A stretch of 64,000 bases of DNA from Octopus vulgaris (Eukaryota): contig OX597827.1 in the NCBI GenBank assembly GCA_951406725.2, positions 75,640,001 to 75,704,000 on the forward strand, given 5' to 3'. The notes beneath the pieces were generated by a model, which worked only from the letters and a program-made list of their open reading frames with translations, made no database searches and was not told where the DNA came from. The position numbers and the translations under genes were made by a program. Shown here piece by piece: positions 29,800 through 30,300 of the stretch. Position 1 is the first letter of the stretch, and each line of letters starts with the position of its first letter.

Positions 29800-29831
<32 letters not shown>

Positions 29832-29864
29832 TATGAAAGAATGGAGTTGAACGATGAATTAACA

Positions 29865-29969
29865 AAATTCCTTTATTTTCGACATATGTTTCGAAGGCTG
29901 CATATTCCTAATTGCGAAGGAATAAGGAGTATATTATGCCGCTTTCTCATCAGGAAAAGCAAGGAACTT
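29865..29969 (-). ncRNA. Type I hammerhead ribozyme with GUC cleavage triplet
   Basis: CUGAUGA at 29953-29947, G-C-closed stem II, GAAAC-AUAU-GUC (cleavage after 29881), stem I AAGUUCCUUgcUUUUC pairing with GAAAAuaAAGGAAUUU. Confidence 0.85.
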
Positions 29970-30027
29970 ATGTCAATGGGTGCATTTTAGTCATCTGAAA
30001 GTTTTTTGTGCATCTTGATGTTGACAT

Positions 30028-30132
30028 AAGTTCCTTGCTTTTCCTGATGAGAAAGCGGCATAATATACTCCTTATTCCTTCGGAATTAGGAATATGCAGC
30101 CTTCGAAACATATGTTGAAAATAAAGGAATTT
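30028..30132 (+). ncRNA. Type I hammerhead ribozyme with GUU cleavage triplet
   Basis: CUGAUGA at 30044-30050, stem II GAAAGCGGCAUA/UAUGCAGCCUUC capped by a C-UUCG-G hairpin, GAAAC at 30105-30109, GUU at 30114-30116, same stem I. Confidence 0.8.
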
Positions 30133-30300
30133 TGTTAATTCGTCGTTCAACTCCATTCTTTCATATATTTATATTTAAAAAAAAAACATACAAATTTCCA
30201 CACGAAAGCACGTAACTTCAAACGTGTTTTCTCTGATGTGAATTTGCTGCCCAGGTATCGGTTAACCGAATTATCCATAACAAGATAATTCATTCTACTA

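Follow-up and report, generated by a model that had tools for sequence, protein, structure and literature searches.

Two back-to-back hammerhead motifs in an Octopus vulgaris inverted repeat: probable debris of a 5'-truncated Penelope-like insertion into a (TA)n tract

The stretch of Octopus vulgaris DNA analyzed here (64,000 nt, referred to as the window) harbours an inverted repeat with two arms of 154 bp each, at 29823-29976 (minus strand) and 30021-30174 (plus strand), separated by 44 bp. A previous sequence-only reading had reported no more than three differences between the arms, and exactly three were counted: G at 30083 against C at 29914, T at 30116 against C at 29881, and G at 30142 against A at 29855, each base given on the arm's own strand. 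This reading had also recognized a type I hammerhead core on each strand, and all core elements are indeed present in both arms, each read outwards from the centre of the repeat. The plus-arm motif (30021-30138) consists of an extended helix I (30021-30043 with 30117-30138), CUGAUGA (30044-30050), helix II (30051-30104), GAAA (30105-30108), a palindromic helix III (30108-30115), which forms two pairs and a 4-nt loop in the monomer, and a GUU triplet with a predicted cut after 30116. The minus-arm motif (29859-29976, minus strand) has CUGAUGA at 29953-29947, GAAA at 29892-29889 and a GUC triplet, with a predicted cut after 29881. Both triplets had been read correctly, and motif geometry agrees with the cleavage positions proposed earlier, 30116 (plus) and 29881 (minus).

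Helix II of the plus motif is closed by G-C and measures 54 nt, in keeping with its earlier description as unusually long. A hammerhead descriptor applied to both strands of the 64 kb matched these two sites alone. In 100 dinucleotide shuffles the mean number of descriptor matches was 0.07, and none of the 100 gave a match with a helix II of at least 3 bp together with a helix I of at least 5 bp. The Rfam model Hammerhead_1 (RF00163), which had been suggested as a check, gave no match in the window at its gathering score, nor did any other Rfam hammerhead model, and hammerhead families were absent among the 30 Rfam matches with E ≤ 10 in 29500-30500. This Rfam miss is probably caused by the 54-nt helix II. 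The inverted repeat was matched only by Rfam hairpin models of microRNA type; none of these reached its gathering score, and they were rejected as shape matches.

Sequence of the same repeat family was found in public sequencing runs: 20 of the 24 runs listed, from 10 studies with four organism labels, contained 29977-30300 or part of it, none of these being on record as RNA. Contigs of four runs were aligned at 80% likeness, yielding 3147, 1739, 516 and 199 contigs; the matches listed comprised 24 of 258 loose ends and 32 of 5645 pieces. The family is very common and high-copy. The contig counts point to thousands of genomic copies, summed depth being no copy number. Within the window no further copy of the family was found, and a pattern scan for family copies with flanks gave none in metagenome contigs, viral contigs and prokaryote genomes. 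The family covers 29989 to at least 30300, where the surveyed stretch stops. Contigs in two runs align from 29989-29990 and continue upstream, for up to 84 nt, in family sequence unlike the window, indicating that the plus copy is 5'-truncated at that point. Furthermore, depth drops towards the 5' side, while the depth of the sequence downstream of the plus arm is of the same order as that of the arm. Loose (AT)n ends behind 30174 were found in 44 and 37 contigs of two runs, and the minus arm ends at the same place. Among the matches listed, at least three contigs span 30174 with at least 31 letters on either side, so that 30175-30303 belongs to this element as its tail. Two forms of this tail occur: some copies carry roughly 15-20 extra bases at 30213-30215, in the loop of the tail hairpin, and they are missing from at least one other contig, as they are from the window. 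Clean opposite-strand joints were seen elsewhere in two cases among the matches listed (30011/30065 and 30053/30124, one contig each); of the six opposite-strand joints, four touch the AT-rich 30179-30181 stretch on one side and may be spurious.

With these family boundaries the layout of the insert can be read. It spans approximately 29823-30303 and lies inside a (TA)n tract, which borders it at either end. From left to right it comprises an inverted copy without tail, the 12-nt filler, a longer copy and the one-sided tail. The left half of the presumed target is a (TA)14 tract (29800-29827), which overlaps the arm end by TA microhomology. The inverted, 5'-truncated copy of 154 bp (29823-29976, minus strand) has no tail and ends at the short 3' end of the family. 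At its other side, this copy opens with the very first nucleotide of helix I in its predicted extended form (pairing of 30021 and 30138), which precedes the core by 23 nt. The head-to-head joint is formed by 12 nt of filler (29977-29988). The remaining 32 bases of the 44-base spacer are family sequence 5' of the plus arm (29989-30020, plus strand) and represent the extra length of the plus copy over the inverted copy. The plus arm (30021-30174) is followed by the one-sided tail of 129 nt (30175-30303, plus strand), assigned to the family by contig depth, bridging contigs and fold. The earlier reading had let the plus arm end in an A-run; the element continues to 30303. The tail includes the variable A-run (30177-30186) and is predicted to fold into two hairpins, a long one and, at 30268-30291, a perfect one of 8 bp whose loop is AC-rich and which sits 12 nt before the long 3' end. 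An (AT)18 tract (30304-30340) is the presumed right half of the target. Both flanks being TA tract, a target-site duplication is not readable. Just outside the TA tracts, host DNA at 29785-29794 and 30344-30353 shows an inverted match of 9 out of 10 bases, from which a small, imperfect hairpin centred on (TA)n would be expected at the empty site.

Extended by three left-arm bases, the 12-nt filler at the junction makes up 15 nt that recur without mismatch at 28893-28907 (plus strand), 1081 bp away and inside an apparent diverged copy of a common host repeat. An equal match was obtained in 0 of 300 and 0 of 100 shuffles; owing to repeats, 9% of the non-simple 15-mers of the window have a second copy. 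Six other window copies of the candidate template motif have three mismatches to 28893-28907. Local templating during repair is a plausible origin for this single, after-the-fact case, for which another genomic copy could also be the source. Positions 29977-29987 of the filler had zero cover in the four runs, which may reflect absence of this insertion from the samples or a filtering or clipping of records.

Family variation was used to examine the motif. Variant shares are given as fractions of contig depth in the four runs and are unphased. Position 30116 is C in 94-100% of family depth, and the GUU of the window is thus a private CpG-type change, which looks like private CpG decay. U at the cleavage position was found to be common among published metazoan Penelope hammerheads, as far as these are given in the available part of the survey (Cervera and De la Pena 2014, PMC4209133), and GUU therefore need not inactivate the motif. 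At 30083, A accounts for 24-45% of family depth. The C-UUCG-G tetraloop that had been described for helix II is consequently not conserved: its letters are present in the plus copy, but ViennaRNA prefers a register with a UUC triloop and the closing G is variable in the family. Two further features had been pointed out. AATAAA is indeed present after the cleavage site (30120-30125); as a poly(A) signal it was rejected, being part of the 3' strand of helix I and varying with its pairing partner, with 30121 being G in 15-20% and its partner 30039 being C in 24-36%. Likewise, the A-run near the end of the plus arm exists (30177-30186), but it is internal and variable, 30177 being T in 19-49% of depth, and does not mark the 3' end. 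A variant at 30112 preserves the palindrome of helix III via G-U pairs.

Within 30021-30138, 19 substitutions at 3% or more were compared with 20000 random placements on the same bases, using the structure of the window copy and examining four statistics; position 30116 was excluded since the window is the odd one there. None of the 19 variants fell on core or closing positions, four keep a pair, three create a pair, three break a pair and are rescued, five are unrescued breaks, one is neutral and three are unpaired. Pair-creating and rescued variants together numbered 6 against 1.25 expected (P 0.002), rescue being judged from unphased variants, and pair-creating variants at mismatches of the window copy numbered 3 against 0.53 expected (P 0.008). 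Harmful variants were fewer than expected (5 against 8.9, P 0.036), and the 16 core and closing positions carried 0 of the 19 (P 0.056). With variants unphased and the structure taken from the window copy, the data lean towards the fold, with its long helix II, being under selection.

Folding predictions for the motifs give an active monomer fold 4.0-4.4 kcal/mol above the minimum. A strand-swapped dimer, formed via the 8-nt palindrome, was predicted at -69.6 / -62.4 kcal/mol versus -66.6 / -58.6 for twice the minimum, and it lies 3-4 kcal/mol below two folded monomers. In a read-through RNA, the antisense arm of either ribozyme is transcribed first. For such an RNA the long hairpin was predicted at -291 (plus) and -272 (minus) kcal/mol, and the fold with the plus hammerhead forced at -169 kcal/mol. 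A competition between the hairpin and self-cleavage had been anticipated, and in the predicted fold it is won by the hairpin. Because the ribozyme is predicted to be buried in the 154-bp hairpin of any read-through RNA, the hammerhead pair at this locus is most likely inert. Cleavage could occur only for transcripts starting between the arms.

The layout of the insert closely resembles that of published Penelope-like elements. Insertions of Penelope elements that bear an endonuclease (EN+) are reported to be often 5'-truncated; a truncated copy is attached in inverse orientation at the 5' end, the tail is one-sided, and (TA)n is the target of several clades (PMC8557442). For Adineta, an inverted pLTR shorter by 37 bp than its direct counterpart is reported, with head-to-head as the commonest arrangement (PMC3846280). 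The octopus locus shares with the published unit (PMC8557442; Pen2a_Av, PMC3846280) the inverted 5'-truncated copy in head-to-head position, the one-sided tail, the shortening of the inverted copy by ~30 bp on its 5' side, and the presence of a hammerhead within the terminal repeat. The (TA)n target is shared with Hydra, Naiad and Neptune (PMC8557442). The locus differs from the EN+ unit in the absence of an ORF, in a tail of at least 129 nt versus 30-40 bp, and in the 12-nt filler at the junction, where the published unit has an overlap or palindrome. Among the 12 of 33 papers listed by a literature search, none, judged by title and opening of the abstract, deals with filler DNA at Penelope inversion junctions.

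Hammerheads of metazoan Penelope elements (PMC4209133) resemble the octopus motif in type I order, CUGAUGA, GAAA and G10.1-C11.1, as well as in the short palindromic helix III suited to dimers and the GUC or GUU triplet. The differences lie in helix II, which is 54 nt in octopus and at most 23 nt in the 56 published metazoan examples by our count, in the lack of an unpaired base after A9, absent in only 2 of these 56, and in helix I, predicted to reach ~20 pairs in octopus (comparison with the part of PMC4209133 that was available). The back-to-back arrangement is already published and not new: Schistosoma has hammerhead pairs on opposite strands 100-700 bp apart, and at a wasp bracovirus locus a truncated Penelope copy carries a second, opposite-strand hammerhead at its 5' end (both PMC4209133). 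Poseidon of Anolis (PAc) likewise has two 3' ends downstream of the hammerhead, an AT-rich target and an AC-rich loop near the long end (PMC11167929). The ORF of PAc begins at helix II according to the same source, whereas the ATG in the octopus core opens 25 codons only; this frame (30047-30124) stops just past the cut site. Animal non-LTR retrozymes (PMC7229834; bioRxiv 10.64898/2026.07.22.740005) are alike in type I hammerhead, low GC, lack of an ORF and high copy number. Unlike these, as they are described there, the octopus locus is inverted, truncated and tailed, without a head-to-tail tandem.

Considering these likenesses together, the inverted repeat is probably (at about 0.8) a single dead, 5'-truncated Penelope-like insertion into (TA)n, with the two hammerheads being two copies of the one near-3'-end motif of the family. 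The features found that are known for EN+ Penelope insertions are the inverted 5'-truncated head-to-head copy, the two 3' ends, the one-sided tail and the AT-rich/(TA)n site. As no reverse transcriptase (RT) or GIY-YIG sequence is tied to the family, its Penelope membership rests on the layout, and the repeat is taken as a pseudo-LTR (pLTR) in which the hammerhead would sit. The sequence-only reading had left the origin as Penelope-like or retrozyme. The Penelope-like half of this is favoured by the high copy number, the (TA)n target, the head-to-head copy and the two 3' ends, and within the window a retrozyme array is not borne out. Its description of the element as non-coding holds for this copy; RT or GIY-YIG coding sequence, which it had not seen either, was matched by none of the 128 window ORFs in a Pfam scan. 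Fitting less well are the tail (129 nt versus the published 30-40 bp), the 54-nt helix II and the five of 19 variants that break pairs without rescue.

A possible course of events follows the lizard element, for which the part of the study available reports that both strands of AT-rich DNA are cut in vitro and that RT starts at two internal RNA sites, initiating in an AC-rich stem-loop (PMC11167929). In octopus, the TA tract would have been cut on both strands by a GIY-YIG endonuclease that the element encoded. Two internal sites of the RNA, ~130-150 nt apart and corresponding to the short and the long end, would serve as starts of reverse transcription, and the tail would represent the distance between such sites (PMC11167929). 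The two cDNAs would be primed on opposite strands of the cut tract and both would stop early, one on the first base of helix I and the other 32 nt further. Head-to-head joining of their 5' ends would then involve a patch of 12 nt, for which DNA at a distance of 1.1 kb is a possible template. The hammerhead of the source element would be a poor cutter alone, acting better as a dimer through the helix III palindrome or with protein help; that of the lizard element is reported to need protein and to be dispensable for insertion (PMC11167929). The arms differ at 3 positions in 154 bp, approximately 1% divergence per arm. On a scale reported for Octopus, where a distance of 0.09 corresponds to 25 million years (PMC13282606), the insertion may be about 3 million years old, within a wide range of roughly 0.6-8 million years. 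The age is likely to be below 3 million years, as two of the three arm differences are CpG-type transitions.

It has been considered that the family is instead a short non-autonomous unit of ~400-500 nt, retrozyme-like or SINE-like, moved in trans by Penelope proteins, the locus being an inverted insertion of it. The very many contigs and the lack of any visible coding sequence would suit such a unit, as would the extent of the family (no less than 29989-30303, with up to 84 nt more on the upstream side). Moreover, animal retrozymes are reported to be pLTR-derived in the available part of a preprint (bioRxiv 10.64898/2026.07.22.740005), and the two pairs and palindromic tetraloop of helix III are reminiscent of retrozyme hammerheads as described in PMC7229834. 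However, the window contains no tandem head-to-tail units, with a single unit in each orientation, and none of nine joints among the matches listed is head to tail, a count that a unit longer than the surveyed stretch would escape. The frequent (AT)n ends at 30174 and the depth falling towards the 5' side fit dispersed truncated copies. This alternative is regarded as unlikely. A formation of the inverted arm after insertion, with one copy being folded back or duplicated in inverse orientation by the host, appears highly improbable. It could account for filler identical to nearby DNA, which suggests host end-joining, and TA tracts are fragile. A host duplication would ignore both the tail and the short 3' end of the family, while the inverted arm stops exactly at the latter and is tail-less; this asymmetry of layout is moreover the norm for published Penelope insertions (PMC8557442, PMC3846280; parts available).

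Equally improbable is that the host has kept the pair for a function, either as dsRNA for ADAR or Dicer or through divergent transcripts from the spacer that yield dimerising ribozymes, acting on a zinc-finger gene 5 kb away. The near-perfect 154-bp hairpin with both cores intact would agree with this, as would the predicted advantage of the swapped dimer over two folded monomers and the report that pLTRs may carry bidirectional promoters (PMC3846280, in the part available). The frame of the neighbouring gene (13606-15960, minus strand) is intact over 784 codons, encodes a long C2H2 array and is 99% identical over residues 1-200 to a protein on record. Against this, each arm carries private changes, two of the three being CpG-type transitions and one lying at the cleavage base, as expected under neutral decay. 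Mariner and SINE-like remnants lie between the element and the zinc-finger gene, and in a common family a copy at 5 kb from a gene is expected. Furthermore, the places of A>G variation in one run, guessed to be RNA, are those found in DNA runs, with contigs dropping rare variants.

With respect to novelty, the layout of the insert is known debris, and what differs in size from published Penelope examples is helix II and the tail. A more far-reaching view, tentative and on balance doubtful, is that the hammerhead of this family, with its long helix II, is an undescribed form that escapes Rfam and the published Penelope descriptors, exists in thousands of copies in octopus-like genomes and is still under selection. 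Helix II and the 130-150-nt tail would then be working modules (e.g. a protein handle), and the stubs would record where RT started, where it stopped and how it was patched from local DNA. Penelope hammerheads or retrozymes of cephalopods were the subject of none of the papers found in a literature search outside which most subscription papers, Repbase and Dfam lay, so that the family may already be catalogued, possibly in the repeat library accompanying PMC13282606; nor did this search find a paper joining a long stem II with a retrotransposon. For the giant squid, 235 Rfam hammerhead matches were counted, with no detail in the part of the report available (PMC6962438).

Octopus Naiads, which belong to a group with an N-terminal endonuclease, share the (TA)n target and the cephalopod host with the repeat, and are reported to lack canonical hammerheads, unlike the octopus repeat with its complete motif (PMC8557442 and its supplement, as available). 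By eye and by short-word search, no extended similarity was found to the Naiad_Ovul or Naiad_Omin consensus or the 3' part of Naiad_Obim in that supplement, in which line breaks may hide words. The 3' ends of the Naiad_Obim and Naiad_Ovul consensus sequences given there contain GAAAC and, ~25 nt on, CTGATGA, among short inverted repeats (PMC8557442). These half-cores stand in permuted order, and a permuted hammerhead may be conceivable.

If standard searches miss a hammerhead with a long helix II, ribozyme counts in such genomes are too low. Calls of 'no hammerhead' made with short-spacer descriptors (7-17 nt, in the available part of PMC8557442) may deserve re-examination. A high-copy family with two distant 3' ends and many inversion junctions also offers a data set for studying the second strand, inversion and junction repair of Penelope elements. 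The host animals are known for heavy RNA editing, and the stubs, if transcribed, would enlarge their pool of dsRNA.

Several other features were noted in the surroundings of the element. The zinc-finger gene has a likely first exon with a splice donor near 24400. A scan of the window for bacterial promoters gave results at chance level and has no bearing here. Remnants of mariner transposase are found at 27787-28497, 33803-34301 and 6986-7513, and remnants of a LINE-type reverse transcriptase at 8731-9108 and 37036-37935; none of these is linked to the hammerhead element. Finally, a SINE-like repeat with an internal microsatellite is present in three copies near the element, at 27001-27269 (minus), 31112-31476 (plus) and 32170-32563 (plus), and the opposite orientations of these copies could add longer-range dsRNA.
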